DNA of 57,336 bases, filler included, from Porpidia crustulata (lineage: Eukaryota), in the NCBI GenBank assembly GCA_964255105.1. It is 6 parts of 6 records of this genome, joined end to end, with 100 filler letters (N's around TTAATTAATTAA, not from the genome) between each part and the next. Parts side by side here need not be neighbours in the genome. Positions count along the whole stretch, not along the records: positions 38,331 to 47,786 come from CAXUWE010000944.1; 5 more parts are not named here. One strand, 5' to 3'. The position numbers were made by a program, and so were the translations under genes. Position 1 is the stretch's first letter. The number at the start of each line of letters is the position of its first letter. A model generated the notes under the pieces. The model ran no database searches, was not told the origin of the DNA, and saw nothing but the letters and a program-made list of their open reading frames with translations. Shown piece by piece: positions 9,466-54,684 of this stretch.

Positions 9466-9488
9466 GATTTGGGGAGGCAAAAGGAGAT

Positions 9489-9588
9489 NNNNNNNNNNNN
9501 NNNNNNNNNNNNNNNNNNNNNNNNNNNNNNNNTTAATTAATTAANNNNNNNNNNNNNNNNNNNNNNNNNNNNNNNNNNNNNNNNNNNN
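9489..9588. other. Artificial contig-joining spacer
   Basis: 100 nt of N with a central TTAATTAATTAA (stops in all six frames). Identical spacers occur at four other places. Confidence 0.99.
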
Positions 9589-10223
9589 GAGGAGTGAGGA
9601 GTAGGGAGGGATTTTGGTAGGTGGGCGGTTGGGAAGGGATTCCCAAGGATTTCCTAATAGTAGCTAACAGTACCTAACAGTACCTAACAATTCCTAATAA
9701 TCCCTAAACAGTGGCAAGAATGCCACAGCGAAAGGAATCGAAGAGGAAACGCGTGGAAATGCTAAACCACATCCGCGCGTCATGGAAATGGGTCTATGCA
9801 ATTATTTCGCCCTACATGGTTCGTTTCTTCTTTCTTCTACGCAGTCAGCTTGAAGTTAGGGAATTACTGTTCGATATTGTATTAATAAGGGTATGGATAT
9901 CTATGTGCGGTGAATTTTCAGGATACGGGTTTTGAGGGTTTGGGTTTTGATGCTGACGGCTCGTGTCAGGGTCACCACAGAGATTTATCTTGTATAAATT
10001 ACGTGGTATCATAGACCCCTGCGCCGGTGCATCCGCGGCGCTGAACATATTCCGGCCGTGATTCCCTCACTTCCAACACGAGATCAGCACTTCAAAATCC
10101 TTGGCGTGGTGGCGAGGTCCGTGTTCTCTAGGGCGGAGTCAAGTCCATTCCCTCTCAAATGTAAAATGCGGGGGGTTGGTACGTTGAGTATCAAACTCTG
10201 CATCCCCCGGTCTCATCCAATAC

Positions 10224-30810: not shown

Positions 30811-32094
30811 TTATCCCATAAGTACCAGGGCCCCCTGAAGACCCTTTAACCGCCTGATCAAGTTTTGTACAAGATCGCTGGCGGTACCACGCAGAAGGGC
30901 ATCACTGTCCCCCCAGTCCAGGATTCCGCGCCCAACATCGACCTGTGTCCGACCCTGTCTCTCCAACTCGCCCTGCATATCTAGGAGGGCGGCTAGCATC
31001 TTTCGAAATCGCACTTGGAGTATCGCTTTGATCGCTCGCGCCGTTGCCGGCATACCGAGTTCGTGGACCCCGAATCGTATCTCTGCCTTACCCCCGGGGA
31101 CGGGAAACACGCACGGCTGGTCTAGGAAGCCTCTGAAGCAGCGTTCAAGGCGACGTGCCTCATGATCATGTGCGGAAAAATTCGGGTCCATCGCCCTGGC
31201 GGATATGGCGCTGACCGTAGCATTGAATTTTCCTTCGAGCATCGAGACGACGCGCTCGGCAAGTAACGACAGAGTAAGTACAGCCCGGGGGTTGGCTGGG
31301 AGAAAACTCGGTCCCTCGCCGTACGATGCATGCTCACGGCAGGTGAAGATGCGATGTTTAAGTAGGCGGAAGTCCCTCTCAGCCCGGAGGACAAGCTCGA
31401 CTGAAGGCGTCGGCAGTCCGGCAGCTACGGACTGTTCGAGACTCGCGAGCGCTGTGAGAACGGCGATATAGCCTTGATCGGCCATTCCTGAGCCTGGAGC
31501 ATTCGGAACCGCTGCGTCGCTGACCTGAAAAGGGTGAAGGGGGTTTCTCCACAAGGTTTCGGGAGAGTTTGATGAGGGTTGACCGAGGCCTTTGAACGGA
31601 TGGATGACCTGGCCGTCGTGACCAAGAGCTGCATCGACATGGCCCACTGGTCTAGAGTCGACCCCAACGGTAGCTTGCCCCGTAGTGGGAGCATTCCAGC
31701 CGGTGCTGGAGGTCGAAGTTATGCTGCTCAAGCCGGCCGTCGTCCGGGAGCTGCGGTCGCGAAAAAAGCTGCTACTATCTACACTTGGATCGCCAGACGC
31801 CGATGTCAAATCGGCCGTCAACCCAACTTCGTCCACGTAGTCATCGCGAACTGTCTCTTGCGAGGGAGCGAATTGGCTGCCCATCTTCCTCGGCCTGCCC
31901 ATGCGCCGAACCGGGCTATAGACGCAAGGAATGGCCCTGCTGACGCATTTCTTGCATGCTGGCTTGCCCTGACTACATCGGACCTTGATTCTTTGGCAAT
32001 GGTCGCAAGCCGCGCGATACCTCACAGGCTGCCGGCCTTCACCCGCCGTTGGTGATACTGGCGATGGAGATGCGTAAATGCTGAGGGTCGTCAT
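30811..32094 (-). CDS. AflR-like Zn(II)2Cys6 pathway regulator
   Basis: Intronless 427 aa with RAACDHCQRIKVRCSQGKPACKKCVSRAIPCVYSPVRRMGRPRK. Confidence 0.9.
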   Translation of the reverse strand: MTTLSIYASPSPVSPTAGEGRQPVRYRAACDHCQRIKVRCSQGKPACKKCVSRAIPCVYSPVRRMGRPRKMGSQFAPSQETVRDDYVDEVGLTADLTSASGDPSVDSSSFFRDRSSRTTAGLSSITSTSSTGWNAPTTGQATVGVDSRPVGHVDAALGHDGQVIHPFKGLGQPSSNSPETLWRNPLHPFQVSDAAVPNAPGSGMADQGYIAVLTALASLEQSVAAGLPTPSVELVLRAERDFRLLKHRIFTCREHASYGEGPSFLPANPRAVLTLSLLAERVVSMLEGKFNATVSAISARAMDPNFSAHDHEARRLERCFRGFLDQPCVFPVPGGKAEIRFGVHELGMPATARAIKAILQVRFRKMLAALLDMQGELERQGRTQVDVGRGILDWGDSDALLRGTASDLVQNLIRRLKGLQGALVLMG

Positions 32095-32773
32095 TGCGAC
32101 TAGTTGAAGTCGAACATCTTGTAGGGCGATGGCGGTTGATAGGATCGCAGGTGGACAGTGAGTTCATAGGATGGAGCTGTTCACCACTTTGTCTCGCCCG
32201 AAGCTGAACACGCTGAGGTAACGTACTCAGTCACCTAATCTATCACCTTCTGGACCACTGCCCCACCCCCAACACGTATTTTCGGCAAAACACCACAATA
32301 CTACCCAGCCACGGCAGCTATCAGGGAGCAAGAATTGTCCGAGTCATCAAAGCTATTCATAACAATAAGTTCCTAGATACACGTACTCTCCCCATCAACT
32401 TCGCTAAATTCTGAAATCGGGACCAGAATTTTGAATACAGCGATGTTGAGGCTGTCCGCCTTTGAGACCCAATAAACATCCTGCTTGCTACCCACCAAAC
32501 GATCGTATTATTGTTTCTGTACCTACCTACCTTACCTACGTCTTGATCGCTCGGCCCAAGGACCTTTTTCCCCGACGCATTTATAGCCGTGTACTTGATG
32601 TCATTTACTGCACTGGTCACGAGGCACACACCTGATGTACGTGGAGGAGTCGACCAGCTTACAAACAGTCTATGGGTAGTCTACGGAATGATTCCACCGC
32701 TGCCGTCGCTCGTGCAAGATCAAACCATCTCGAGAGCCCCTGGGGAGTTGCTGTGTTGAAAGTCAAATCCCTT

Positions 32774-34777
32774 TCAGACACTGCCCGCGACGTCTTGGCT
32801 TGTCTTGTTGCTTGCATCGCTTTCATGAACCTCGGTCTCGACTACAGCCTCCGCAGGAATGAGGCTACCAGGCCACTTGGCAATGAAGGACGACAGGAAG
32901 GCCATGCCGAAAAGGGCGATCACCATAGCCCAGGCACCCCGGAGGCCAACCATCCACGCCTGGCGCACGCCGCGTAGAGTTTCGTTATCAAAGTTGTCTC
33001 GAATGCCGTACGCTCCCATTTGGAGCACCGCGTGAGACTCAACGCTAGGTGCGTACGTTGCTAGGTTTTTCAGCAGCAGGTTGTTCATAATCGTGTCCGA
33101 CATGGCGATCGCGATGACAGAAGAGAAGAATTGGGTCACTGCCATAGAGTTAGAACACGAAGCGAGCAATGTTACTGGAGCCACACTCACCACAAACCAC
33201 CGAGAGACCAAGTGCCTTGTCCCGCAAAGCGCTCAGAGCGCCAGCGATGATGACGGGGAGCTGCACTACCAAGCCGACTCCAAACCCAAGCACAAGCTGA
33301 TATCCAATCTGCTCGCCCAGCCCTGTGTCGAGGTCAAACTTATAGACGAGGCCGGCTCCGATGGTGGCGAGGACTGCGCCTACGATCATGAAGGGCTGGA
33401 ATTTACCGATCTTGCCAACAGCGATTGAAGATGCCATTGAGGCAGCAGCTAGAACAGGCGTGTCAGTCCGAGGCTATTCTATCGAGGGCAAGGCACTGGG
33501 TTGCTGTACTTACACACCGAGAGAATGATGGGGATAGTCCTAATTCCACTGTCTCTAGGAGACAGACCCTTGATGGCCTGAAAATAGACAGGAAGGTTGT
33601 AGACGATAGAGAAGTATGCTCCATACAAGCTATCATCCCGTCCATTACTCAACGTCCCACGAAGGAGCTGGCAGGGGGATGACCTCACAAGAAAACGTAG
33701 GCACAAGCCGCTGTGATACCCCGTATGTGAAGGATCCGCAAAATCAGCATTGCGCGGTCCTTCTGGTACCGTTCGTTGACTGCGAAAAGAATGGTCATCA
33801 AAGCCCAACCCACAAGCAAGCCGATGACGGTCGGAGTGTTCCACACCTTTGTCACGCCTCCCCACTGCAGTGCGAACAAGAAGCAAAGCATAATCCCAAC
33901 AAACAGGACGAAACCCAGCGGGTCAAAACTCAGGAACATCTCACGAAGCGGTGTTTTGTGTGTGGCTTTGACATGGGCCGGAGTGCGGAAGAAGAACAGG
34001 ATGCATGCTGCCGCCACACCGCCAATAGGCAAATTGATGTAGAAGCACCACCGCCATGTGACCGAATCCGTGAAGACGCCACCTAGCAGTGGGCCGATGA
34101 CGCTGGCGATACTGAAGACGGTGCCGACACCACCCACAATCGCAGGCACTTTTTCGGGAGGTGCGATGAAGGAGGCGATTGTGTAGCAGCCCAGGTTAGT
34201 CCCAGCGCCACCGGCTCCCTGGATGGCACGCCCAACAATGAGGGCTGGGCTGTTGGGCGCCAGGGCACAGATAAGGCTGCCGATCTCAAAGACTGAGATG
34301 GCAGCGAGAAAACTGGCCCGGACGGAGAAGGAGTTGTAACACTTGCCCCAGAATGATTGGAAGGCCGCTAGTGTAAAGAAGAATGCCGAACCATACCAGG
34401 CAACGTCGGCGAGCGAGTTGAACTCGGTGGTGATGACGGGAACAGCGGTCGAGATGATACTCTGAAGGCGGTCTTAGTCACTATACACAGATCATCCGAG
34501 TCGCAGGTAAGATTATGTTGACACTTACGATATCGAGTGCAGTCTATGATGGGTATGTTAGTCAAACGGTCCCGAGGGCAGGATAATATGAGGGTTTGCG
34601 TGGCAGACTTACCAGAAACGAGCTGAGCAGGAGACCGAGAATGATGGTGGCCTGCTTAGCTGTTGAAGGGTATACAATCTCCGACTCTGTCTTCTGAGGC
34701 TGAACTGGCTCATTGCTAGGCTGAATCCAAGGTTGAGCCCTCGGCAGCTCATACGGTTCTTTATCCATGACAGACAT
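32774..34777 (-). CDS. MFS efflux transporter (DHA2 type), multi-exon with a 15-nt microexon
   Basis: STAVPVITTEFNSLADVAWYGSA, GRAIQGAGG, TWRWCFYINLPIGG and YNLPVYFQ. Microexon TALDI at 34543-34529 is bounded by TAG and GTAAGT. Confidence 0.9.
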
Positions 34778-35196: not shown

Positions 35197-35239
35197 ATCG
35201 TATCAATCATTTTCTGCAGGTTTGGCTGAATTATGAATC

Positions 35240-37250
35240 ATGAAATCGATTTGGCTTTCGTTTATTGACTGTTTAGACCCGGCCATGAGCCGAGCGGTTG
35301 CGAAAGTCAATTTGAAGACGACAGCTGGCGCAATATTTGGTGGCGAGTCTGCTTATCCACTACACCCAGCGTCTCTGAATTCCATTTTTCAGCTGGGCCT
35401 CATTGCCTGCTACGGTGGCCAGATCGAAAACGCTCGGAATGCTTTTGTACCCATCCATTTGTCTCGCCTGTACCTCAAGCACGGGAACATCGAAAGTGAC
35501 TACGTTACTGCCACCATCCATGAGGAGCTTCGCGGCCTCCGAGGCGCGTATGTTAAGCTGCAACTGTCAAACCAGGCGGGCGGTGTGGTGCTCGACATAG
35601 ACAGTCTACGCTGCATCAGCTATCTCAATGGCAAGTTATCCGAGAAACTCCAGCCGAGCCAATTTAGAAGTCCACTTGCCAGACTGGTATGGAAGTCCGA
35701 CATCCGTATGATGAACAATGCCCGATGTCGCCAAATATTCCCGCCTCCCCAAGAGAATGGCGATCAGGCTCATCTCTTCCCAGTCGTGAACAGGTTCGCG
35801 TCAGTCATTCTTGTCGATATTTACGAGAATTTGACCAACAGAGATGATGCACCTGAGCCCATCGATGACCCGGGTCACTTCGCTGCTTGGGTCAGAAGGC
35901 GCGTCGAGAGCAGCGATACGCCCCAGATAGCCGATGCGAAAAAGATGTCCAGCCACGATCGGTTGAAACTGCTGAAGGAAATTTACTCTCGGAAAGATGA
36001 GATTGTCGAGATCAAGATCGCGAAACGACTGCATGAGAACATGGAGACAATCTTACGCGAGCAAAAGCCTGCGCTTGAGATCTTACCTCAAGACAGTCTC
36101 CTAACGGCGCTCTATGAGACGGGGCTTTTCATGACGAGCGCCTACCCGCAGCTGTTCAATATATTTGAATCTCTTGGGCACGCCAACCCGAATTAGCGGA
36201 TTTGGGAGCTAGGCGCCGGTTCAGGCGGTGCAACGCGCGTTACGTTAAGGGCCCTCGTCGGCGCCAATGGCATCAAGCGATACAAGGACTATATATTCAC
36301 CGACATCTCGGCAGGTTCCTTGGCATCGGCGCGCGAATCCCTGGCCGAGCACCTCGATGTCCACTTTTCTAACCTGGACATCGAGCTAGACCTCCGACCC
36401 AAGGATATGAGGCCTCGTACGACGTCGTTATCGCGTCCCAGACCCTGCATGCTACTACGAGCATTGCGAATACGCTGGAGGACTGTCGGTGACTTCTAAA
36501 GCCTGGAGGAAAGCTGGTCCTAGTCGAGAACACCCAGAATGACGATCTGGTTGGCATCATATTGGGCACATTGACCGGATATTGGCATGGAATTCTTGAC
36601 AGGCGGACCAACAGCACGTTCCTGCGCCGTGAGGTATGGGACGTGGCACTTCGGGGCTCTGGCTTCTCGGGTGCAGAGCTGATTCTTTGCGACCATCTGG
36701 AGCCTCACATCACAACAACCGTCTTTGTGTCGAAATTTGTGCCATCCGAAGGTCCAGCGACTCGAGACCCAATTCTCAACCCGGCGACATCAAGAGTGCA
36801 GCTTTTATATAACTCCAGCCAAGCTCCGGCCCTGCTCTTTCAAATCTCTAGGAAATTGGAGCGTCGAGGCACTCGGGTCGAGATGGCCTCCCTCGGGGAC
36901 GCTGCCGGCTCTATTTCCCCCAACGCACCAGTGGTGAATTACCTAGACGAGTTGAACCTCTCGTTGGACGCGGATGAAGAGCAACTTGAGCGCTTCAAGG
37001 ATCTTGTTTCTAGCTTTCAGAGCTTGCTCTTGCTTACATCCGGTGGCATAGCGAAGGGCCGCAACCCCGACACTTCCTTTGTTTCTGGGCTGCTACGAAC
37101 TCTGAAGCCCGAAAAGCCCGGTATTAGGTTTATGTCCGTCGACGTTGATGACTTCGAGCCTGTGAACGAAAATCTCGTTCGGTGCTTGGTGGATCTGGCA
37201 TCGGGTCTCCAGCAATACGATGTTGGTAAGAGGAAGGACAGCGAAGGATT
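35240..37250 (+). pseudogene. Internal fragment of a highly reducing PKS (DH, C-methyltransferase, linker), pseudogenised
   Basis: DH segment YPLHPASLNSIFQ. MT segment ANPN*RIWELGAGSGGAT...YIFTDISAG with stop at 36194-36196, a frameshift near 36390 and TGA near 36490. No KS/AT upstream and no KR/ACP downstream. Confidence 0.85.
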
Positions 37251-38230
37251 TGGGTGGAGGGTTATTTTGCAGTCGATCCTCCAGCCTGTCTACATTCTTC
37301 TCAGTCTTCTCATTCTCTTGCTCGACCCCATGTGCCCTCGTTCTCGCACCTCCAATCCCCATTATCTTCTTTTCTTTCTTCTCAAACGGGCTTGAGCCCC
37401 TAGGGCTCAAGCCATAAAGTCCGACTTCTCCACGTCATTTGATTCAAAGTTTGATGTAGGTGTGTTCTTGCATTTCATACGTTTACCGCGATTTGGATCA
37501 GTCGAGTTTCCACCGCAACTCTTTGATTTCGTGGTCTCGATGGATGATGCCCCTCCGCCTCATTCTCCTATTATCATATCTTGCTATCCACCCATCTTCT
37601 TCACATTCTCACTCATTTGAATTCCACATATTCATTTCTTCTACTTCTCTTACATACTCGCAATGAGTTTCAAATAAAAAAGACATCCCGATCTACACAT
37701 TGGCATGATGTTGAGATTTTTGTATGGTTTCTGATTCTACGATTCTGTCGTTTTCCTTCTTTGAATCTTGATTTCGCATCGAGAATTTAAGACACTTCAT
37801 CACATGCGGCACGTCGGCATTGTCGAAGTCTCGATTTTCATGACACATTCGCCCTTCTTCACTCTCTTCATTTTAACTTTCATTCTTTTCTCCTCAATTT
37901 ATCTCATTTCTTTCTAATTCTACTCTTCTCTCAATCTTTCAATTTTCTTATACATTTCGTTCACTTCCGATTTTAGCATTATTTTCTTCTTCTTTTTCTT
38001 CACGATCTTCATCGTGACTTCTTCTCTATTCTTCATTCATTCGTCTACAAACCTCACTCAAATCAATCATCATCGTCACAAACCCACTCGTCTCTCTATC
38101 TCTCCCGCTTCAACATTTCTCATATCCACTATTCTATCCTCATCCCGAGCTGCGATTTCATTTCTCGGGGTCACTATTGTTTTTCATGTATATTAAAAGA
38201 AATATATAAAAAGAATAAGAGATCTTTGAT
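37250..38230 (-). mobile_element. Degenerate repeat, possibly the 3' end of a non-LTR retrotransposon, truncating the PKS relic
   Basis: Strong pyrimidine skew and stop-riddled frames. Perfect 11-bp hairpin GGCTTGAGCCC-CTA-GGGCTCAAGCC (37389-37413), followed on the minus strand by a GAAGAAAGAAAAGAAG tail. PKS similarity ends abruptly here. Element class is inferred. Confidence 0.5.
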
Positions 38231-38330: not shown

Positions 38331-39255
38331 GCACAAACCTCTATTTTACCCCATCCCTCTCCTCCACCTACGCTCAAACCGCCGAATAACGAGAAGGGCT
38401 GCTTATAAATGTGCTCTGGGCGTGTTTGAATGAGAGTTTACAATTTGGCGAAAAATGAATCAAATCGCGGGGAAGTCCCAAAAGGCAAATACTGCTTTTG
38501 GTACTGCAACCATCACACCCATTGAATTAGCTGTCAATACTTGATATCGTAGATTGAAAGCTGTGCATATCATTTGCCCTCAAACTGAACATGAAGCTAG
38601 GAGGATCCTGTACTACTTCGTTCATCCTGTGTGGCCTTGACTCAAGAAATCAAAGGAACAGCGCCGGCTGGACGTTTCATGCAAGATTGGGAGAGCGGCG
38701 TGTATATAGGCTAGATTTTTGATAGAGCCATTCTGATACTAAGTGTAATTTTGTTCAATCCCACAGACGAGACCGGCGTGGTTCGAGCTGAATACGGACG
38801 CACCCATTTACAAGTAGATCGGTCATAAACCTAGCATAGACTTGGCACATTGTGCGACACTAAGTGCGTTTCATTGGCTTTGATTCTGGGTATGGATGGC
38901 TGGAGGGTGGAGTACAAGAGTATCTTGGCACCGTAGGTATGCAGTATACGTGTGAATGCTGGTATTGTACAACTATGCAAACGCCCGGTATAAGCGAAGA
39001 GCTTAGTTATCCAGGCTGTGGCTTGCTCTATCATTCATCTGGGTATCATCCCCGCATACCATCTCAATCATGATGGACGTGGAGATCGAAGATTGTATAA
39101 GTCCTTAATCATAACTGCTCACCACTCTTCGTTCGATCAACTCCGCCTCAACAATTCCTCCTTCAATCGTAGCACAAGATTGGTCATAGCAATTTCCCTA
39201 TAAGAGCATTACTCACCCACAACCTCATCCTTGCTACACATAAGCCAACTCTACA

Positions 39256-40240
39256 ATGGCTCCACTTACTTGGCTAGTGACTGACTGTTCCTCCGGCTTT
39301 GGTGAAATCTTTGTGCACAGTCTTCTTGCCCGTGGTGACAAAGTTATTGCAACAGGCCGGAAGGCTTCTGAGCGTCTCGTTCATCTCCAGAATACTGATG
39401 CCAAAATCCTCGATCTGGATACCACCGCCTCTCAGGAGGTGCTGAATGCCAAAGTGAAAGAGGCTGTTGAATTGTTCAATGGCATTGACGTGCTGGTGAA
39501 CAACGCCGGCTGGTGAACAACGCCGGCTACGTGGAAGCAGGTTTGGCAGAGGAAGTGAGGTATTGCAGCGTTCTCAAATCTTTTTATCCATCGTCTATCT
39601 AACATAACTTGCAGCCATGAAAAATAGCTAGATCAGATCAACACGAATCTTTTCAGCGCCATTGATATGACACGAGCTATTCTCTCCTACTTCCGCGAGA
39701 AACGATCAGGAAAGATTGTGTTCGTCGGCTCTTATGGAGGCTGGTGTGGCGAAGTCGGAGCAGCTCCGTACTGTACCGCCAAGTTCGCGTTGGAAGGTCT
39801 GTTGCACGCTGCAGATCCTGTATCAGAAGTGCACATATGCTTACGGCTTGAATTTCAGGCTATGTCAAATGTCTGCAGAAAGAAGTATCGCACTTTAACA
39901 TTCAGTCGATCATTTTCGAACCCAGCTACTACCGCACCAAGATCTTCTCCGCTCAGAATTGTAAAGTGTCATCTCCCACGCATGCCGACTACAACGACAT
40001 CTTCGCTGCTATGGTAGCTGGCGTTGAGGCCATCGACGGAAATCAACGCGGCGATTCGGTCAAGTGTGTGGAGCGTGTGATTGACGTGGTCAAGTCGGAG
40101 GGCATGGCTGCAGGAAGATCAATGCCCAAGAGACTGCCGCTAGGATCGGATACGATGGAGTTTGTGAGGGCAAAATGCTTAAGACGCTGAAACTTTGCGA
40201 TGAGTGGAAGGATGTGATTTGTAATACGGATTTGGAGCCA
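39256..40240 (+). pseudogene. Short-chain dehydrogenase/reductase pseudogene
   Basis: WLVTDCSSGFG (TGxxxGxG altered), IDVLVNNAG and YCTAK catalytic motif. Lesions: a 17-bp tandem duplication (39493-39509/39510-39526) causing a frameshift, an in-frame TAG at 39625-39627 and a frameshift near 40180. Confidence 0.85.
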
Positions 40241-42512: not shown

Positions 42513-43090
42513 TCTCTCGGTCTGATAGCTGTCGTAATTCTCAAATTTCGAAGAATTATGCAGTATTGGGACGTCCAAATGTCAGGGAATGGAGTAGCCG
42601 TTGGTAACAGAGTCCTGTTGCAATCCCCTCGCCGCGTCAAGTTGCCCACACAGGCGGATCTGGTCGGAACAAAAATCTCCATTATATTCGGCTTCGGGTT
42701 GAACTTCTGCATGAGTAAGGCTATGCAAGGTTGATTATGTGAACATTGTGTGTTAGAGGTGCATTATTGGATGAACCTTGCACCAGTCGCTAATCTACGT
42801 GTAGGACCTACTTGTGTACTCCAACAACTTCGACAAGCCGTCTTGCGTTGCTTTGATAATAATTAGCCTATTCCATTTCTAGTGGGTATGAAAGGTGAAG
42901 CAATATTGTTTTACGGGGTGCTCCATCATGATGCCAAAAAGCCCTATGCATTAGGTTGATTGTTGAAGTATTTTGCTCTCTCTATGTATTCCAAAATGAG
43001 CCTTCCCTGTATGGTTTGTTCTCTATCCACATCTTGTGCACACCAGAATCACTATAGAGCTTCCTTCCATAGCTCGACAAGCAATACTAC

Positions 43091-43404
43091 TCAGTCGTCG
43101 GTGTATGCGTCGGGGTAGACGATCTCCGAATCGCGGTCAAATTCGGGATAAACAATATTGTCATCGTCGGTGCCAAAGTCGGGGTACACAATATTGTCAT
43201 CGACGTCTGTTGCCGCTATACCAGTCATTCCAGACGATGCTTGGGGAAGCCTACTACTAATGATACGTCGATGTACCACTATGTCACGACCAGTCAGTCG
43301 GGTTTATGAAGCAACACATCGGGGAATCTACCATCGGGCTTGTACACCGGTGCTGCGTACACGCAAAGACACATCGTAGCTAGATAGAGTACGGAGAGCT
43401 TCAT
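43091..43404 (-). CDS. Putative fungal RiPP precursor: signal peptide plus three acidic IVYP repeats, 86 aa, 2 exons
   Basis: Exon 1 43404-43332, 53-nt intron 43331-43279 (GTAGAT...CTGAC...CATAG), exon 2 43278-43091. Product: MKLSVLYLATMCLCVYAAPVYKPDVVHRRIISSRLPQASSGMTGIAATDVDDNIVYPDFGTDDDNIVYPEFDRDSEIVYPDAYTDD*. Divergent from the DUF3328 gene. Confidence 0.85.
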
Positions 43405-43486
43405 GATGATCATCCAATACTGATCAGTGACGGATTGCAGGGGATATTCTTGGGTTGATCAACAACCAACAACGGGGAATTGTCTC

Positions 43487-43492
43487 TTTATA
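43487..43492 (-). promoter_or_regulatory. Candidate TATA box of the precursor gene
   Basis: TATAAA on the minus strand about 85 bp upstream of the ATG at 43404. Confidence 0.4.
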
Positions 43493-44025
43493 CATAACAA
43501 ACCACAATAAACCGTTGTCATCAAGCTGCAGGGAATGAAAGATCGCAATTAGGAAGGTCCAAATGGTCCATACACGGTGTTCTCAAGGTTTGGGGTTTTG
43601 TATGAGCTTGGCCGGTTTACACAGGGCGAGGGCGGTGTTGTCCAAACTCGACCGAAGAATTCGTCCAATTAATCGGCACTGATCCCATCTACCTTTGACA
43701 TTTCAAGGCAAGAGTTGATAAGACTTGCTTTTAGATTTCTCTTCGGGGCCGTAGGCATCTAAGTGGTTGATTTCCTTACTGGGGCATATGCAATACAACG
43801 CTGCAACTAATTCCCTGCAACCAGTTCTACATGCGGTGATTCAGCTTGACATGCTTCTCCATTACAGCTATACAGCATACTCACCTAGTGTCTGCCATTT
43901 CTCGGACAGACCCAAGTCTTCTTGGGTAAGTACTAGACGTGATATTTACCCGAATTATCTGAGAATTCATGGACTTTGAACGTTCCTACCTTCAGTATAC
44001 CTCGAATTTCTTCTGATATTCCCGG

Positions 44026-44952
44026 ATGACTCCTTTCAGGTACAAGCCAATTCTGTCCACGGACGAAAAGGTTGAAGGGGGATTCGAGGAAGAAAGATTG
44101 GACCAACCGATCAAACCCAGAAAACAAAGATTGAATTTGAGCTTTCTCTTCCACCTGGTGCTGCTTGTAATCTACACCACAGGCAGTTATCTTATCATAC
44201 GGAAGGCAACTTTTCACTGCAATCAGAGAGACCATGGTATGCCAATCGATTGCCCGACAACTTAGCATCGTATCGCTAAAGTCTCCGCAGTCTTTGCCGG
44301 CCTAGCCATCAAGTACAAACCCCAACTCTACACCAAGTTCAACGAAAGCCCTTTTGCTGGCCCACCATCTGTCGAAACCGACACGGCGTGGCACGCTCTC
44401 ATGGGAAATATGAGCATCCGGGTGACCAAAGCGGAACTTGACTCCCACGGGCAAAATTCTGTCGAACTCCCTTCAGGGGGTTATCTTGCTTGGCTTGGTG
44501 TATTTCACGAGCTACACTGTGTCGTCAGTATGACCGCTCAAGAAGCTGCTAGTTTCAGTGGCCACCAGTCAGCTACTGACTACTACGGATATAGAAAATG
44601 CTTCGTCAATGGAGCTACAGAGAGCATTACCATCCCAACATGACGGCCCACGACCGTCACCATCTAGAAGTACACATAGGTTGGTCTGCTCGCTCCCATC
44701 TGGGACCTTCTAACGCCCATCCCAGATCATTGCATTGACTGGTTGCGGTCCGCCGCAATGTGCCACGCCGATACCTCAGCACTGGCAACTTTCAAATGGG
44801 ACAAAGGCCCCAAGCCGATGTTGGACACCAAACGAGTGCCACATAGATGTGTGGATTGGGAGGAGATGATCTCGTCCCATAAGAATCGCAGGGTCAGCCA
44901 CGAGGAGGTGGCCAGTATGATCCCTCCCGCTTCGGCTACGGCCGACCACTAG
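44026..44952 (+). CDS. DUF3328 / UstYa-family oxidase, 4 exons, 251 aa
   Basis: Exons 44026-44236, 44291-44523, 44595-44679 and 44726-44952 (756 nt, in frame). N-terminal TM helix (LNLSFLFHLVLLVIYTTGSYLII), FAGPPS..TDTAW, VFHELHC and HIDHC (two HxxHC motifs), then IDWLRSAAMCHADT and HRCVDW. Confidence 0.93.
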
Positions 44953-46280
44953 ATCTCGAGGTCAGACCTCACTGTGTGCGATGAAAAGCGCGAATAGAAG
45001 CGAACATTGTCAAGTGACGCTGTGTGGATATGCACAGTCACCAGGGTGAATTTTCGACCGGAAACCATAAGTTGTGCAACTGAAAGTGCTTTGCAGGAAA
45101 TGAGCTGACCGTGTATTGAAATCTTTGCATTGTGTACGTAAATATGGTAATTTTACCATCCACTAATACTATAGAGTATGCCGCATTACCCTCTACCTAG
45201 TCCCACATATCTTTGTTTGCGTAGGTTCAGCCTGTAATATTATCTAAACGTCGTGAGGATCGAAACTGATGGAAACCCTCATGATTATCTACCGGCACCA
45301 TAGGCATCCTTCTAATCATAATATGTCTCATGTCTGTCTATCTTGTTCATGGTCGTTTTGATGCCCGAGGTCAGCATACATGATGCAGGCATATCTTCTA
45401 GCACATAGTATCATCTCATCAGCCCACTATGCTCCTACTCGTAGCAGATATCTCATTCGATAAGGCTACATCAACTGAGATGCATATCCTTTTTCGGGTG
45501 GCGCAGATCTGGTCACTCGTTCGTTTTCTGTGCCCTGTTCTTGCAGGATCAAACGTGCTGCAATTTTATTGTCCATACAGCGTGTCTTCACGTCTTCCTC
45601 AACATAGGCGATTTACGGCTCTTACAAGCAGAGTTCAGCTAGCAGTTGCTAGCTACTCACACGTGGCATTTTTTTCAAAATCGTCTTACTGGCAGTTGTT
45701 CCTCCTTGTGGTGGGTAGTATTACCTCGAAAAAAAGGATGACTATTCAATTTTGCTTGCTTTGGTCAGCTTCAACGCTTTTGTACCCGCATAAGACGAGT
45801 GATTTTCTCTATCCATAAAAGCGATTAGTTGACATTTTTAGGTGCCGCAGATGGGATGACAAAGGGGCTCGCATAAAGGCTTCTGTGTCTATGATCACGG
45901 CTGTTTAGTCACTGTAACATCTTTGTATAAGGACATGCATAGTCTGCATCATTATGGTAGTACATGACAGCGCCTTGGGCCAAGATTGTGTCACACGGCT
46001 GAGACTGCTATAAGCCACGGCGAACGTGATCGCAACAGCAATCTTGGTTTCGTTCAATAGTTTAGTTTTTGACGATTGCTAGCAACGCCTATCGCCCGGA
46101 CTGCTATTGAATGAAGCCAGGATGTAGGTCCTTTCCCCGCCGATGACGCGTTTCTAAAATAGTCTTGGTCAAAGTACGAGTGTCTGGAGCTGTGTGGTAC
46201 ACAAAGGCGCCCGAAAGGTCTTGCTGATTTCCCATCCCAACGGTTTCGATGAAATCGGCAGTACTCGGTTCTTTTAAACT

Positions 46281-47786
46281 ATGTATGGCAGTTTGAAGAA
46301 GCCGCTTCTCGTTGCTCTGACGCTGATTTTTCAGCTTGGACCTCGATTCGTCAATGGTATGTACCTCGTCATGGGAGCCATGTGTTATCCATTTCTGGGC
46401 TGGTACCTTTCTCAGCTCTCTCATGGTAGGTATCCCGGAGCTATTCAAGGATATCCTGGAAAAACCCCTTCCACATTCCTTAACCGGCCGCTCTGGAGTA
46501 ATCAGACCCTATACTTTTATTATTACCCGGGGTTTTATCGCGCCTGATGGCGTTAACAAAAGCGTTCTACTTGTGAACAATGCTTTTCCAGGTAGTTTCA
46601 ATATTTTTCCTTCTTTTCCCTTTTCCCTTTTCCCCTTCTTTATTCTGTCAAATCGCTAAGGCCTTTGCTTGAATTTGTAAGGTCCCCTATTGGATGCAAA
46701 TTACGGCGACATCTTTCAAATCACCGTCATCAACAATATTTCTGGGCCTGAGGAAGGGACTCTCCTTCACTGGCATGGAATTACTCATTGTGGATCTCCT
46801 TGGTATGATGGCGTTCCAGCTGTTGACATGTGTCCAATTGCGCCTGGAAAGTCCTTCACCTATACCATCAAGGCAGAGCCCTATGGTACCTCATGGTGGC
46901 ATTCGCACAATTCTGCACAATTGGCGGATGGACTGATGGGTCCTATGATAATCCATGGGTTTGGTCTCCAAGTTCATAATCGAGATGCTGCTCGCTAATT
47001 ATAGTAGTCCGATCGCTGATGCATACGACGTCGATATTGGACCAGTTATTTTGGTTGGTCAAGCCGCTCTCTCAATCTTTCGGCATTGATGTTTATTAGA
47101 GTGACCACTATCATCTGGATTACAAAAGTTACATAGAAGAGTCCAGCGGTATCCCTTTCACAGTCCCCTTTGCAGACAGTAACTTGATTAACGGCACGAT
47201 GTACTCTACCTACCTATGACTGATAGGGTATAGTGCTCTATCAAGCTGATCAATAGCATAGGTTCTTCGACTGCTCTCTAGCAACGGACGGCCAAGCTTG
47301 CGTCCCTAATTCTCCAATATCAAAATTCTACTTTCAAACTGGAAAAACGTACCGGCTCCGTCTGATCAATGCCGGGGCTGATGGAATCCAATGTTTTTCA
47401 ATTGATGGACACAATATGACTGTCATAGCTAACGACTTCGTCCCTGTCGTTCCTTACCAAACAGATGTCGTGAGTCTGGGAGTAGGCCAACGCACTGACA
47501 TCATAGTAAAGGCCACAGGCAAAGACACCGATTCCTTCTGGATTCGCTCCAACATTACTACGATCGGAGCTCTAGCCCCTATACCACCACAACCCTACGC
47601 CCTTGCAGCAATATACTACTCTAAAGCAAATACTAGCGCCTTCCCCCAGTCTACCACAACCCCCCTAACCCAGACGTCCTGCGGCCAAGTACATCTTCAT
47701 CTCACTACCGCTCCAACCCCCTAACCTCCTCCAGATCACCCTCAAGAACGCCACCCCCCGTACCCCCATGAAGCCCCCAACCACCC
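46281..47786 (+). CDS. Laccase/multicopper oxidase, N-terminal part (3'-truncated at contig end; first exons uncertain)
   Basis: GFIAPDGV...NNAFPGP, L1 [20 protein letters not shown]2 [18 protein letters not shown] and GQRTD, across several GT-AG introns. Confidence 0.88.
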
Positions 47787-47886
47787 NNNNNNNNNNNNNN
47801 NNNNNNNNNNNNNNNNNNNNNNNNNNNNNNTTAATTAATTAANNNNNNNNNNNNNNNNNNNNNNNNNNNNNNNNNNNNNNNNNNNN
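47787..47886. other. Artificial contig-joining spacer
   Basis: N run with central TTAATTAATTAA, 100 nt. Confidence 0.99.
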
Positions 47887-50800
47887 GAGGAATAGCAGGG
47901 TCCGGAGATCAATGGGGTTGAAGCGTAGCTGGAAGGAAATAATGGAGTTCAGCGGGTTTGGTGGAAAAGCCCGATTGGGTAGACAGCTGACAGATGTCAA
48001 ACAAGAATTAGTATGTTAATAGTAAGCAGTCCTCGGAAGATCAGGAATCATCGGAAGCGTTGTGAAGATGACAATTTGAATCTCTAGGCTTCCAAGCCGG
48101 AGAAGTTGTCCCGGGACTGCCGCTACGGCGCGCGACTACGCCATCCACACGCAATCAGCGTATTACCCTAACCCTTAATCGTTATACTATCTTTCTCCCT
48201 TCCGGCGTACAGTTTCAGCCTCTTGATCGTACTGTCTCAGCATTCAAATCAGGAAGGCTTTTGCGATTGCTACCCTACTCCACTTTAGAACGCCGAAAGC
48301 ATGCCGTGGGGGTACACCGACGTCGACTGTCAGCTCTGCAGCAACTGGAAACCATGGCGTAAAGCCGCTCTTCGCATCCAATCGCCAAATCCTTCTCTGG
48401 GCGCGGGACTTTACCCATGACTGCCGGTCATGTAACTACCTTTCCGCAAAATACAAGCTACAAGCTTGCCTGTCTGATCCCTTGACTAGAACACTATCGG
48501 TGAGTCTGCAGATCCCATATTGCTCACCTGTTCTTCTTGAAGATGACCCTCATTCGTGGTAAGGTTGACTGTCATCCACCCTGTCACGTTCCCCGGCGCT
48601 ATCGGACAACGAGAAATTTTGGAAGATTCCTTCTAATACGCGCATATTGTGACATAGTCAGCATCTATATGAAGGATTCGCGGGAACAAATAACATGCTT
48701 GATATGGCAAAAGAAGGGCAAAAAGTGGAGAGCGATTTGTGATATAATGATTAATGACGCATTGGGGCTTGGGAGAATAGTCAGTAGTATACTAATCACA
48801 GATGTAATCATAGACAATAATCCTAGATTATATTTGTTCTTATTGGTGACTCAGTTTTATGAGATAGGTTAGAAAGGTGACGGTATCGTTGAATCCACAT
48901 TCAGCGTTTGCTATCTTACTTCCATTTCTTGCCTTATCATTTCCCTAGAAGAGCGGCTGGGACAACCACCATCATGGTTATGGTTCCAATTCCACGTGGC
49001 CGCCACGACGATACTGCAGTCGTTCCTGACCAACGGAGGGGGCGGTGCGATATTGCTGCAGCTGACACTGCATTACCGCACAGCCAGTCTCGGTACTTCA
49101 TGCTTCCTTCTGTAGCTTCGGGTTGTCGGGCGGACCGGAGAGCAAGAGATAGATCAACGCATAACTTGCCTATCATGGCTTCACAGCGTGATAGCTTCAT
49201 GTCGTTCTTCCAGTCCGTCTGCGTGCACGTACATACGTAAACTTTCATGTTGTTCCTTGTGTCACTGTGATATGGATGCATTCTTGAAACTGATGTATCG
49301 CACAAGGATGTAGTAATGCAATGTGAAACCAATTCTGTGTATCGTGTAAGACATGTGTTTTTCTTAATCACTTCTGAGATCTCAGATATGATCTTCAACA
49401 ACCTCATCGTACGCCATCAACCAAGACAGTGTTCGGACGGCAGCACGGTACGGAGTGAGTAGGCACATACGGGGGTAAGGGATCTCTGAGACTGAGATTG
49501 ATCGTTCTGGTTTCAAAGCGTCGGAACGCTTTCCGACGGGGACACGGCAGGAGCAGCCACTGGAGTTTCTGTTAGGGTTATGGGATCATCCATGATGGAG
49601 GGGGTTGTGAGATGGATCACAAAAGTACTGTGGCTTTGGTGGCTTTACTTTCTTAATTTCATATCTTCCCTGTCTTCGCATCAGCGCAAAACCGCGAGTA
49701 TGTTACTACGGTTTATATTACTGCTACCTAGGTACCTGAGCTATCATACTAGCACGATTAAGATCCTCCTGTGTCAGTTGGCTTGAGCTGCTTACAAGTC
49801 TTGGTCCTGTGCGGACGGTCAATTGCGGCGCATGACCTATATCCGCCTGGCTAGCATCAATCACATTATCGATAGGCTCTGCTTGAAGCCATTGATGTGC
49901 TCATCTTTGTTTGTGACACCGAATGATGGATTGGTCGAAAAGCAGATCGCAAGGATTTCCATGAATAATTGTTCCGCGGATAACGACCCTGCGGGATGCC
50001 TGATTTGAGGCGGAAGCGTGGCGACGAATTGAACTAGTCACCGATGCCAAACCCGTTGTCGTATGCTATAGGATATTGCTCCTAATCAGCCGAACAATTT
50101 TCGATCAATAAGGAACATTCTATCCGTGTAAGCACACAACCAAATCGGTGTCTTTCGTTCGCTACATCGGGATTTGAATGCTGTCTCTGAAAGTCACTAT
50201 TTCGCTACATTCGTCAGTGCATATTGCGGTTAAATCAGCAGCATCACATGTTCAACTTATATTCAAAGTAGCGGTCCATACGTATTTGGATAGGAATTGC
50301 GTTCAACGTAGTAACAGTAAATTCAGCTCAAAATACTGACGAGTCTACATTAAAACTCAAGATATTGCGGCCGATGAAAGAGCAGTGTATCTAAAGCTGT
50401 GCTCGAAGTAACGACTCATCCGTTCAGGAAATTCCGAATGCCTTCGGTTGACTCTCCTGCTTGCCAAAAACGTAATGGCATACGGCGATGGGTTTGGCAT
50501 CTATGACTAGCGCTGGGTTTTGACAAGATCTATTATCGTAAGCTGAAGCTTTAATCAAGTAGGTGGTAGTCTACGGAGTCGTACAGTGGATAGGTAGCCA
50601 GATAGCTCACCGCGGATGGTTTCCCGTACCCGAGACAGAACTCTTTTATTTCTAGTGGGCTTCTAGCAGCTTCCCAAGTCCCAACACGATGGGAGCTTTC
50701 TCGCTATGCAATCTTGGGGAAGTCCGCAAGTGACAGGGATAAGCTGGTGGAATCATACATAGTAGTATTAATTATAAATCTAAATAGACTTACGTATCGT

Positions 50801-52587
50801 GTATGATATACCACTAATTTGCGCATCTCGCGAATTTGATATTTGAGGCAGATGACGAGACAAGAACCAAAACAAGGCAGCATAGTGCAGGGCACAGTGC
50901 CCTCATAATTAAAATGATCTGACCGCAACGCTCGGCACAGCTGAGATGAGAGTATGGCAAGCGGTAACTTGATAGCTTAGGCGTTGTGATTGCGATCACT
51001 CAGCCACGCATCAGATTGGTGATGGAAAAATTAAGGAGTCATAAATATGACCACTGCAGTTCCAACGTGTGACTGGTCGATAACCTACTCCTGTGTCTGG
51101 GGATCCAATCAACCGGAGATCGATGATACCGCCCAGACCCTCCCAGACATCCGGTCATGATGTGGATTCAAGAACCCGACTTGTTTGTGTAGTAGTAGCT
51201 GTAAGATTGTTAGAAACAATTTACATCGTAGTGAAAAATCAAACATTTATTCTGATTTAATGATGCTGATTTTCATAGGCTTACCGAGCAGATGGATTAC
51301 ATCCGACTGACTACCAATGGGCGTACTTGCTAGGGTACGACAGGTAGGCAGCTAACAGCTTGGATGTACGATGATCGACGTTTAATCAGCCAAGCCATGC
51401 TGTTGCTGGGATCTGACTGAAGCCGTCTGACCTGGAGAGTAAAGTGGCTTTGGTTGGGTGCTGCAAGCTGCAGGTACACGCACGAGGTTGTTAGGGCTTT
51501 CAGGGGATAGACTTCCATACATGATACATCGATGCCCTAAGACAGACTAAGACGATCCCGAAAAGTTCTTCTTTGCGACCCGCCATACGATCCCAAATTC
51601 CCAATCAAAGGCCCAGGCATCTGCCTGCTCTACCCTGCCGACTAATCCGTTATGGGGAGCTTTAGTGTTGGTTCAGGCTCTTGAAACGTCTTTCATCCTG
51701 GTCCGGCACACCCTCCTCCATGTGGAATTACTGCTGGAAGGATGGTGCAGAGGAGAGTCAGAGTCCAGCAGGACGGAACTGCGTCCTGCGTCATCGTATC
51801 ATATTATTTATTTCCACTCCGGAACGGACCACACGAGATAATAACCGCCGGTGACAAAGGGATATGGTAGTGTACGGTGGTAACGTAAACTATAGCAGCG
51901 TTCATAATCAGAGTAATCTAATAATTCAGACGGCAAGACTGAAAATAAAATAAAAATGGTCTCGGCTGTTCAAGGGGTACCGGCATGCCATCTACATAAT
52001 TATATCGATCCCGTCGGATACGTTCACAATTTTTTTTTGGTAATTTTCCTTCCTTGCATGATATGTGTCTCGTTGCTGGCAATAGGTCCCATTCTTTCCT
52101 GCTCCACCCAAACTTCCATCCATATATCAGACCAGCTGCTCAGTCTGTAAACCTAAAGGCTTACTGCGCATCTCCTTACCAGGCTTGATTCGATTGCCTC
52201 GAAACGGATAATTTTGCCGCTGAATCTGCCTCGACACCATACCGTATCCTGCATACCTCAGGATCCTAAGCAATTCTCCACCGCAAATCCTTAGATTCCT
52301 AATAGAAGGCATAGTCGTATTCAGCAGCGAATCTCACCTGCAGCTGCACAACCTCGGAAAGCTCTGTCACCATCGCAGCTCAGCTGGAATTACGTGAACG
52401 TTGCGTTCTGGACACAGCCCTAATCTATTTGTGAGTCAGTCAGCGCGGCGCTATCCATCGTTGTGATTATTATATATCTCCCGCCCATCCATGTTCATCC
52501 CAACTTCCTTTGGTAGAACAGCTACTGACCATCGACCTAAGTCCTTCCGAAGCTTTTATGATACTCCGAGAGACCACACTTGCAAAC

Positions 52588-52650
52588 ATGGGACGCGGCG
52601 CATACGACACCACTGGAGTACCAAAACCCCAACCACCCAAACCTCGATAA
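52588..52650 (+). CDS. Candidate 20-aa micropeptide MGRGAYDTTGVPKPQPPKPR
   Basis: ATG in a strong Kozak context (GCAAACATGG), stop TAA at 52648-52650, and intron-like signals on both sides (52431-52541, 52794-52848). Confidence 0.35.
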   Translation: MGRGAYDTTGVPKPQPPKPR

Positions 52651-53819
52651 ATCTCATGGGCTCCAAGGATTCCCCGAAATCACTGCTCACAACTTGTCGC
52701 CGCATCAAGCTCTGGCGACTGCCTGCTGCCTCGCTCAAAGGAGGACAGTGGCTGTGGTGGTCCTTGGAAGACGGATGGATGACTCCCCGCTATGTACGTA
52801 CTATTTCATGCAGTCTATAATTACACCTTGCTAACGACATCCTGGCAGACGTCTTATTCATCCGCTCCACTCGCCCTTGACTTCCAATGTGCGCCGCGCA
52901 ACTTTTAATTTCTCGACGTCCACCGTGTTCACTACGACTCCTTCATCGCCAAATAGACTGTACCACCACCCTTGTCCACATTGTAGCACCAGCAAGATTT
53001 GCGACGTCCAGCGAATTACCCCCATGGAGCGAATTTCTAGGATTTCGACATCATACAGCATTTTCATATTTCCTTGCAACGAATTTCCTTGCATCGGTAC
53101 TTTTAAAAGTCTTTTCGGAGTTCGAATAGACCACGCGGGTTGGAATTCTGGGAGATACACAAAATAGATTATTCAGACTTCACAGTCATTTGAGAAGAGG
53201 GGAATGTTTGTACAACACCACTACTTTGTTTCCTTTGTGGGTTCCTGGGCATGGCTTTTTCTCACAGCGCTTGTTCTCGGCTTTGCTGGGTGCATAGGAA
53301 CAATTGAGGAGAAGCAAGCAGGGCGGGACCCGGGGATTCGGCTAGAGTCGGATTTAACAGTTTCGCGCTCTTAGCTCACATGCATAGATAGAATTCGATT
53401 TCTACTTTCACCCTTTCTTTCTCCGAGTGTGACTCAGTCGATTTGATGTCTGACTGTTAGTTTGCTTAACAGTTGAGACGGAACATGTAGGTTGATTGGC
53501 TTGCCCGGAAAACCCACACATCGCAAGACGGAGGCGAATCGATGCGAGATACGTGTGCAGCCGCCTGGTGTACTTTGTACCTATTGATGTTTTAAGAAAG
53601 TAGCGCTAACCCAGATTTGGCTAAATCGTCATGAGTGAACATCCAACCACTATCGTAAGGCAATCAGGGAAAACAACACCCACTTGAATGCTCATAAATA
53701 CACCTACTTGATTTGCAGCTTTTCAGAATAGGACTGGAGAGCCTTGCAGCTATCTAAGCTCACCGACTGGAGACTGGCAGTTCTCTTGGGCCGGAAATAG
53801 CTCGGATTCTCTCGACATT

Positions 53820-54684
53820 ATGGCCGACCCTACAGCTGCGACACCGAAGCCGAGCAGTAGTGTCAAGCTTGTCCTACTCGGCGAGGCAGCGGTAGGAAAG
53901 GTAATCCACGACCCTGCTTATCGAGATTGGACCGATAGACTGATGGTTGGCGGTGTGCAGTCTTCCCTAGTCCTCCGCTTCGTCAACAACGACTTCCAAG
54001 AAAATAAAGAACCCACGATCGGTGGTATGTCAAAGACCCTCACCGCACGCCTTCGACATATTCCATTCTAAGCCTTGCACAGCTGCCTTCCTGACTCAAA
54101 AATGCAATCTACCACATCGTACGATTAAATTCGAGATCTGGGATACCGCCGGTCAGGAGCGATTTGCCTCATTAGCACCGATGTATTATCGCAATGCACA
54201 ATCTGCCTTGGTCGTCTATGATCTTACCAAACCCACCAGCCTGATCAAGGCCCGTCACTGGGTCGCCGAACTCCAGCGGCAAGCAAGTCCTGGGATTGTG
54301 ATTGCGCTAGTTGGGAACAAGCTCGATTTGACGAATGAGGATAGCTTGGAGGAGACTACTACCGCTCATGGCGAGAATGAGGGCGCAGAGAACGGCGGAG
54401 AAACCGAGGGAGATGGTGATGCGAGAAAAGTGAGCACGAAGGAGGGAAAAGAATATGCGGAGGAAGAAGGACTATTGTTTTTCGAGACAAGTGCCAAGAC
54501 TGGAGTAAATGTGCAGGAAGTTTTCACAGCGATAGCAAACGCAATACCAGAAACGCAAATGAAGTCTTCCAGGGGTCCGGGTGCAACGAGTCAAGGTCAG
54601 ACTGCGTTGGGAGCAGGCGCGGAAAGGGTGAACCTTGCTGGAACACGGGGCGAAAGCGGAGCAAAAGACGGATGTGCTTGTTAG
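53820..54684 (+). CDS. vps21: Rab5-family GTPase Vps21/Ypt51, 3 exons
   Basis: [56 protein letters not shown] and a C-terminal CAC prenylation motif. Introns at about 53901-53960 and 54025-54081. Confidence 0.95.

Follow-up and report, generated by a model that had tools for sequence, protein, structure and literature searches.

The question raised by the locus described here is whether a small gene with three acidic IVYP repeats encodes the precursor of a peptide made by ribosomes and modified after translation (RiPP) that is acted on by an oxidase of the UstYa (DUF3328) family and matured without the protease Kex2. The gene lies on the minus strand of a 57,336-nucleotide stretch from Porpidia crustulata (assembly GCA_964255105.1; six parts of six records joined by filler letters), hereafter the window, and its immediate divergent neighbour is a UstYa gene, in line with the initial annotation, which had seen a small secreted repeat peptide beside a DUF3328 gene. 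Our analysis suggests that the gene probably encodes the precursor of an uncharacterised, widely conserved, Kex2-independent and UstYa-dependent (dikaritin-like) RiPP pathway, and that its peptide is, with similar probability, the substrate of the UstYa enzyme.

The initial annotation had described IVYP repeats with Ile-to-Ile spacings of 12 and 11 residues, encoded by ATT GTG TAC CCC, ATT GTT TAT CCC and ATC GTC TAC CCC, and these details were reproduced on the minus strand. The repeats lie in what we read as the second of two exons (Table 1), whose in-frame translation (43276..43094, minus strand) comprises 61 residues and ends in DVDDNIVYPDFGTDDDNIVYPEFDRDSEIVYPDAYTDD; it opens with a variable stretch (VHRRIISS...) and continues with DVDDNIVYPDF, the dipeptide GT, DDDNIVYPEF and DRDSEIVYPDAYTDD. 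Removal of the predicted intron joins the open reading frame 43413..43333 in phase to the repeats, resulting in one open frame of 86-89 codons. Its N-terminus (MK, a hydrophobic run, then VYA/AP) was called a signal peptide by eye only, and the same pattern is present in 12 full-length relatives. The sole dibasic pair of the window precursor is an RR at residues 3-4 of the exon 2 translation, in the variable pro-stretch; it had been placed downstream of the signal peptide, which holds only once the intron (43279-43331) is removed.

The predicted structure was observed in RNA from one public soil metatranscriptome containing a close relative (share 0.07), which was compared with the window over 42950-45000. 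One contig of 225 bases aligns with 12 differences to 43148-43278 and 43332-43425, leaving out exactly the predicted 53 bases, with ends that read CT..AC on the plus strand, that is, GT..AG on the minus strand. Five of the differences fall in exon 2: by codon reading, those in the repeat region (43178, 43208) are synonymous, and the three in the variable stretch (43221, 43227, 43234) alter the residue. The RNA contigs cover only parts of the window and are evidence of presence and splicing, not of expression level, and a second run, identical to the window in sequence and possibly the source DNA itself, was not counted as independent support. These data establish the small two-exon precursor as a genuine gene with an intron that is removed from its RNA.

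A chance open reading frame or a simple repeat, with no gene behind it, might be suspected from the shortness of the frame and from the need for an intron to link the signal peptide with the repeats. This suspicion is already refuted by the spliced contig, by the 24 relatives and the saturated synonymous and low nonsynonymous change described below, and by composition: apart from the three units, the pattern [IV][VI]YP[DE] has a single match in the window's six frames (27159), and in 200 mononucleotide shuffles there were on average 0.145 matches, three within 30 residues never occurring (0/200).

Relatives of the precursor were sought in three ways. A word-indexed search with exon 2 returned 10 matches among 12 candidates; a profile search of 1.84 billion representatives returned 29 matches, of which 12 were accepted, two (P0079, P0082) were kept as possible relatives and 15 were set aside, 14 of these on their sequences and P0080 (3012 aa) without its sequence; and a profile search of the word-indexed database returned 24 matches among 3520 candidates, 23 of them accepted. 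In total there are 24 database relatives, or 25 members with the window. They belong to the Lecanoromycetes, Leotiomycetes and Sordariomycetes, and include the lichen fungi Usnea florida and Stereocaulon virgatum as well as Hymenoscyphus fraxineus, Rosellinia necatrix, Xylaria sp., Echria macrotheca, Podospora didyma, Lasiosphaeria miniovina, Parahypoxylon ruwenzoriense, Rhypophila sp. and Cytospora schulzeri. Two subgroups can be distinguished, the window type (...IVYP[DE]F...IVYPEFDRDSEIVYPDAYTDD) and a sordariomycete type (...IVYPEP...[IV]VYPEPD[AP]D..[IV]IYPDLYTDD).

Some candidates were discarded. Eleven proteins with DNIVWG (D-D-N-I-V-W-G) repeats (P0064, P0066, P0073, P0075-P0077, P0081 and P0084-P0087), several of which have subtilase-like N-terminal parts, were rejected as unrelated, the profile having matched them through D-D-N-I-V only. 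Also rejected were one trypsin-like protein with HLVYPPFDRRSD repeats, one protein with IVHPEFRGG and one with ILYPECC repeats. Among ESM Atlas look-alikes of P0003 the best score was 0.80, below the meaningful level.

That homologues might fail to conserve IVYP had been named as a weak point of the idea, and the relatives in fact keep [IV]-x-Y-P-[DE] units. Three such units are present in 24 of the 25 members, the exception being a 29-aa fragment; a fourth [YW]P occurs in two entries, within a mis-called N-terminal part. Spacing between units is 11-13 residues across the family, and once 7. An alignment of 16 sequences (A2) shows no variation at Y-P in any of the three units, nor at the D and the second Tyr that follow Y-P in unit 3 (Y-P-D-x-Y). 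At position -2, nearly every unit has Ile or Val; A, T, G and N each occur a single time, two of these in mis-called parts. Position -1 holds V, I, Q or S. In C. schulzeri (P0090), where the spacing of units 1 and 2 is just 7 residues, unit 3 has Trp for Tyr (VIWPDTY), an aromatic-for-aromatic swap that fits a role in cross-linking.

The lack of Kex2 sites, which the initial annotation had taken to mark a Kex2-independent class, proved to be a trait of the family. No dibasic pair is found in any of the 24 database relatives, and across all 25 members the sequence between and beyond the units is free of such pairs; the whole pro-region can be judged in the 12 relatives that are full-length with a hydrophobic N-terminus. 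The RR of the window falls in a stretch that differs in every species and has no counterpart in the relatives. One RK, at the exon junction, is present in our own spliced reading of a precursor on a metagenome contig of 6249 bp (L001). Kex2 independence is supported by conservation.

The same contig allowed selection on the peptide to be assessed, since its precursor (5727-6048) has an intron at the same place, again by our own reading. Over 38 aligned codons of the repeat region, synonymous sites are saturated between window and L001 (22.8 differences on 22.7 sites), against 10.2 nonsynonymous differences on 91.3 sites (pN 0.11). This contrast indicates that selection on the peptide constrains the acidic region as a whole, with its spacers and beyond IVYP itself, and the precursor is under strong purifying selection.

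Evidence for the partner enzyme comes from domain, motif and RNA data. PF11807 matched two exon open reading frames of the UstYa gene at 47.3 and 49.1 bits (cut-off 25), and the spliced model carries HELHC at residue 143 and HIDHC at residue 175, copper motifs of the HxxHC(x)nHxxHC form as defined in PMC12435403. The most hydrophobic 19-mer starts at residue 40 (mean Kyte-Doolittle 2.01), an N-terminal transmembrane helix by hydropathy alone. DUF3328 enzymes are described as membrane-anchored, lumen-facing, dimeric, binuclear-copper and O2-dependent proteins, and the cyclase AprY as copper- and O2-dependent in vitro (PMC12435403). Introns 1 and 2 were confirmed by the RNA joints 44235>44290 and 44523>44595 in a 561-base contig covering exons 1-3, while intron 3 and the full model are predicted; the model shares 75% identity with P0013 over 249 aligned residues. 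The precursor and UstYa contigs, both spliced, come from one RNA run. Upstream of the UstYa start codon, the contig of the relative has 11 bases, following 43991, that the window lacks.

The pairing of the two genes is not peculiar to the window. On L001, a UstYa gene (4183-5165; PF11807 79.9 and 43.5 bits) lies immediately upstream of the precursor on the opposite strand, with 70-79% tblastx identity to the window exons. Adjacent locus tags link UstYa and precursor in S. virgatum (N7G274_010243 and N7G274_010244) and in P. ruwenzoriense (AAE478_008742 and AAE478_008743), and linkage is suggested in four further cases, where precursor and UstYa come from the same source on equal-sized contigs (5652, 9046, 6727 and 32040). 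In Echria and Podospora, the two are found on equal-sized megabase contigs of the same species, which is weak linkage evidence. Judged from sequence, the head-to-head pairing recurs across three fungal classes.

It is improbable that the gene encodes no RiPP at all, its product being an unmodified acidic secreted peptide (an effector, a metal-binding or a signal peptide) that shares a promoter with a UstYa enzyme acting elsewhere. No product is known, an Asp/Glu-rich composition could bind cations, and the polyketide-synthase fragment, short-chain dehydrogenase (SDR) and O-methyltransferase of the window could belong to another pathway. Such a reading has to contend with the recurrence of the pairing in three classes and with the occurrence of both genes as spliced transcripts in one RNA run; moreover, an invariant Tyr-Pro with a branched aliphatic residue at -2 is the kind of site that DUF3328 cyclases are described to use (PMC6514808).

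Table 1. Coordinates of the precursor, its partner gene and other features along the window.
Feature	Position	Strand	Description
Precursor exon 1	43332..43413	-	ATG at 43413 or in-frame at 43404; signal peptide (by eye); ends in phase 1; RNA contig covers 43332-43425
Precursor intron, 53 nt	43279..43331	-	GTAGAT...ACTGAC...ATAG; predicted from sequence, confirmed by RNA contig joint 43278>43332
Precursor exon 2	43091..43278	-	Variable pro-stretch with RR, three acidic IVYP units, stop codon 43093-43091
Unit 1, IVYPD	43178..43192	-	Context DVDDNIVYPDF; conserved in relatives
Unit 2, IVYPE	43142..43156	-	Context DDDNIVYPEF; conserved in relatives
Unit 3, IVYPD	43109..43123	-	Context DRDSEIVYPDAYTDD; second invariant Tyr; at very C-terminus
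Shared divergent intergenic region	43414..44025	.	Precursor and UstYa head-to-head, start codons about 610 bp apart; same layout on L001; presumed bidirectional promoter
UstYa/DUF3328 oxidase gene	44026..44952	+	Exons 44026-44235, 44290-44523, 44595-44679, 44726-44952; 251 aa
O-methyltransferase, PF00891	41226..42581	-	E 7.5e-30; downstream of precursor, same strand
Multicopper-oxidase fragment	46681..47721	+	PF07732 and PF00394; two of three cupredoxin domains detected
Short-chain dehydrogenase (SDR)	39244-40190		Pfam match
Highly reducing polyketide-synthase fragment	35237-37392	+	DH, methyltransferase piece and KR-type (sdrA-like NAD-binding) piece only
MFS transporter	32777-34473		Pfam match
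Zn2Cys6 regulator	30814-32163		Pfam match

The surroundings of the pair were screened with Pfam, covering all 207 stop-to-stop open reading frames of at least 80 aa in the window and 87 of the 125 frames of 45-79 aa between 37.4 and 53.7 kb; about 460 masked bases in the window could hide something. Among the scanned frames no tyrosinase, peptidase, second UstYa or BURP family was found in the window. The probable pathway would begin with the signal peptide taking the precursor into the endoplasmic reticulum, where a membrane-anchored, binuclear-copper UstYa dimer would oxidise one C(sp3)-H bond per unit. The phenol oxygen of Tyr would be coupled to the beta-carbon of the Ile or Val two residues upstream, a linkage also found in one of the asperipin-2a rings and in the 14-membered cyclopeptide alkaloids, and, as no tyrosinase is present, the para-OH of Tyr is proposed to be used directly. 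The acidic flanks (D-x-D-D upstream, D or E downstream) would serve as the recognition sequence of the enzyme. Release would take place without Kex2, non-dedicated peptidases trimming the product to protease-resistant macrocycles, and the neighbouring O-methyltransferase may add a methyl group. Within this scheme, the Tyr-O to C-beta(i-2) ether ring is a tentative assignment made by analogy, and excision into small peptides is put forward with equal reserve.

As for the closest analogue, the asperipin-2a pathway of Aspergillus flavus (precursor AprA, DUF3328 cyclase AprY, transporter AprT and reductase AprR), the AprA core is repeated many times between Kex2 sites. Both systems have a single UstYa-family enzyme, no tyrosinase and a precursor with Tyr-centred repeats, which in the IVYP case is presumably secreted too; they differ in that the AprA core is FYYTGY, whereas the IVYP precursor has three non-identical units, no Kex2 sites, Pro after Tyr and acidic flanks. 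AprY is reported to be essential for asperipin-2a, which has two rings, closed by ethers that join Tyr side chains to beta-carbons, and the gene cluster is described as a four-gene cluster without a tyrosinase (PMC6514808). A review compares the asperipin-2a macrocycles with those of selanine A, a clubmoss cyclopeptide alkaloid of the 14-membered type with a Leu-Tyr-Tyr di-ether (PMC11253845), and such a di-ether runs in the upstream-residue-to-Tyr direction that we propose for the IVYP units. Given this precedent, the proposed ring is less exotic for fungi than the initial annotation implied when it looked to plants. Ether-ring chemistry is favoured because Tyr is invariant and replaced only by Trp, because the -2 residue is nearly always Ile or Val, and because the layout with one UstYa and no tyrosinase resembles the cluster of asperipin-2a, whose macrocycles are likened to selanine A.

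Ustiloxin and phomopsin, by comparison, depend on a tyrosinase-made hydroxyl and have the opposite Tyr-x-Ile order. IVYP is the YVIP of phomopsin with Tyr and Ile exchanged, and IVYPDF and IVYPEF correspond to phomopsin-type hexapeptides in residue composition, with the order changed. The precursors PhomA (YVIP) and UstA (YAIG) have a signal peptide, of which the window precursor has a putative counterpart, and share with the window repeated Tyr/Ile cores and a nearby UstYa-family enzyme; the window differs in having no Kex2 sites between units, no tyrosinase, one UstYa and a reversed order of Tyr and aliphatic residue. In both known systems an ether is formed between Tyr and Ile (PMC6514808), and the precursors are described as being cut by Kex2 at KR, with a tyrosinase (UstQ/PhomQ) and at least two UstY proteins needed (PMC12048977, PMC6514808, PMC7329392). 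Plant burpitides and cyclopeptide alkaloids (selanine A, arabipeptin) offer a further analogy, since the proposed chemistry would match their copper-dependent ether from the Tyr phenol oxygen to the C-beta of an upstream aliphatic residue; they too have no dedicated Kex2-type release and have conserved recognition sequences flanking the core. Their enzymes have a BURP-domain fold and not DUF3328, and with no BURP match in the window the likeness is one of analogy, not of membership.

Several points weigh against the pathway as proposed. The chemistry rests on analogy, and no product, mass or cross-link has been observed. Neighbour information is lacking either way for 15 of the 24 relatives, so that some evidence of linkage to UstYa is available for nine, and U. 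florida and H. fraxineus have no UstYa among the 48 matches listed by a search with exon 2 of the window UstYa gene among longer proteins, although length and word limits apply to that search and it gives no evidence of absence. No peptidase family was found on L001, as in the window. The O-methyltransferases of the two loci are only distantly alike: L001 also has a PF00891 gene beside the pair, on the other side (next to UstYa), and the two proteins share 23% identity over the aligned N-terminal and middle part and 54% over 44 residues at the C-terminus (tblastx). Finally, UstYa enzymes are described as also carrying out hydroxylation, halogenation and transacylation (PMC12435403, PMC12048977), and the units are position-specific, fixed in number and separated by conserved spacers, unlike those of classical multi-core precursors, with unit 3 always different, always at the end of the protein and always with a second Tyr.

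The catalytic range of the DUF3328 enzymes, which includes macrocyclisation beside the reactions just named, bears on the view that the peptide is a UstYa substrate modified in another way, by beta-hydroxylation, dehydrogenation or halogenation of Ile, Val or Pro, or by a cross-link through another atom. Sequence alone fixes no chemistry. Nevertheless, we consider this view unlikely, given that every unit is centred on an invariant Tyr (once Trp), that Tyr is reported to be enriched in Kex2-type precursor repeats beside DUF3328 genes (65.6% vs 38.2%; PMC7329392), and that a single UstYa in a tyrosinase-free layout corresponds to the asperipin-2a cyclase as described (PMC6514808).

The mode of release is more delicate. 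Position-specific units, their fixed number and the conserved spacers argue against a simple excision of identical cores, and the same pathway could operate with nothing excised, a very acidic peptide of about 40 residues, left once the signal peptide is removed, being modified at its three units and secreted whole as a tri-macrocyclic ('stapled') molecule. This prospect is somewhat doubtful, and yet it accounts for the constant copy number of three, for the conserved identity of each unit and the terminal place of unit 3, and for spacers that are conserved while synonymous sites are saturated. Furthermore, the members show neither internal dibasic sites nor another recurring cleavage motif, no peptidase was detected at either locus, and in some relatives (H. 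fraxineus P0009) the acidic region starts a few residues past the predicted signal cleavage. Against this, the characterised dikaritins are described as small excised peptides (PMC6514808), and the conserved flanks are equally explicable as enzyme recognition sequences. The possible relative P0079 (138 aa, E 1.1e-4) has a signal peptide and repeats of the form DD-x-I[VI]Y[PR]DE..Y.EEY, each followed by KR except the last, with Y-P in three units and Y-R in one; it would possibly be a Kex2-type cousin of the family, and suggests that single units may stand alone.

We rate the two routes as nearly equal: trimming by general peptidases is favoured by all characterised precedents and by P0079, and the absence of excision by conserved spacers and by non-equivalent units whose number is fixed. 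That another protease is needed, as the initial annotation had concluded from Kex2 independence, is still inference, an unexcised product fitting about equally. In the less probable case of a whole secreted peptide, the family could represent a new RiPP class, in which an acidic peptide processed by signal peptidase alone would bear three macrocycles installed by the copper enzyme, each at a fixed site that differs from the others; the third might be bicyclic through the second invariant Tyr. The family is conserved as a two-gene module of precursor and one UstYa across at least three Pezizomycotina classes. If this reading is true, its product would be the first of a DUF3328 enzyme to be a mid-sized multi-ring peptide instead of a small core cut from its precursor, and UstY clusters that are 'orphan', in lichens and beyond, would be explained.

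The probable UstYa-dependent pathway also bears on how such systems are searched for. [quoted passage not shown] KEPs share with it a secreted repeat peptide encoded beside a DUF3328 gene, and are defined by the Kex2 sites between repeats that are absent between IVYP units; 22.3% of 7878 KEPs are reported to have a DUF3328 gene nearby (Umemura, 2020, PMC7329392). As described in published surveys, the mining rule for fungal DUF3328 RiPPs is a signal peptide plus repeats between Kex2 sites (PMC12048977, PMC7329392, PMC9632046). By that rule, the IVYP family would be invisible to the KEP survey (PMC7329392), the Venturia screen (PMC9632046) and the lichen survey (PMC12048977), as it has no Kex2 sites between repeats. 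In a literature search that was thin on subscription journals, we found no publication with the extended unit strings in a fungal RiPP context or with a Kex2-free UstYa precursor; no fungal RiPP was among the listed text matches to 'IVYP', and no Kex2-free UstYa precursor, by title or abstract, was among the listed matches in the recent DUF3328 (from 2023) and dikaritin (from 2022) literature.

In this context, lichen fungi are of interest, as Usnea, a genus of the Parmeliaceae, carries a relative of the IVYP precursor. The lichen UstY clusters of Clans R1 and R2 resemble the window in being from Lecanoromycetes and in having a UstY signature gene with an O-methyltransferase; Clan R1 is described with two UstY genes, a tyrosinase and an FGE-sulfatase, while the window has one UstYa and none of the others (Pasinato and Singh, 2025, PMC12048977). 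The account of that survey reports no repeat precursor after a screen for a signal peptide and Kex2 sites, and speaks of a 'mystery' surrounding the precursor peptide (PMC12048977). The IVYP unit offers a concrete search motif for orphan UstYa genes. Moreover, precursor and UstYa form a minimal two-gene system, with culturable carriers, for peptide recognition and cross-linking by DUF3328 enzymes, and the family allows asking whether fungal dikaritin-type chemistry works without Kex2, as plant burpitide systems do. There is a genuine possibility that the product is of a new type, an intact acidic peptide with several rings.

Among the other genes near the pair, the O-methyltransferase is a possible tailoring enzyme whose membership in the cluster is uncertain. 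Its family stands beside the pair at both loci, yet with low identity and in a different position. The multicopper oxidase, considered as a stand-in for a tyrosinase, was not counted in the system, given that two of its three domains were detected, that the region is partly masked and that it has no counterpart on L001. No Cu-oxidase_2 domain was found in any frame downstream of it, where 88 of the 100 bases of 47787-47886 are masked, and the gene may be truncated. Where the asperipin-2a cluster has the reductase AprR and the transporter AprT, the window has an SDR and an MFS gene, and neither of these is present on L001. No KS or AT domain was found upstream of the polyketide-synthase fragment, which is probably a gene relic. 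On L001, a membrane protein with a fungal-rhodopsin domain (PF20684; 418-1217, minus strand) lies beyond the O-methyltransferase, with no counterpart near the window pair.

Pairs of 44-base N runs at 9489, 19073, 28653, 38231 and 47787, about every 9.58 kb, and two runs of 10 bases at 10440 and 40312 look like masking and not like biology. From 48000 to 53700, about 5.7 kb have no Pfam match in the scanned frames of at least 45 aa, and this stretch is gene-poor or degenerate; a Rab/Ras-type GTPase gene follows at 53712-54684. At the other end, positions 1-18000 encode a DUF7730 protein, an ABC1 kinase, a SUR7/PalI protein, a HAD hydrolase and a large protein with an Mcp5-type PH domain; since these are of an ordinary housekeeping type, the cluster-like region begins well downstream.

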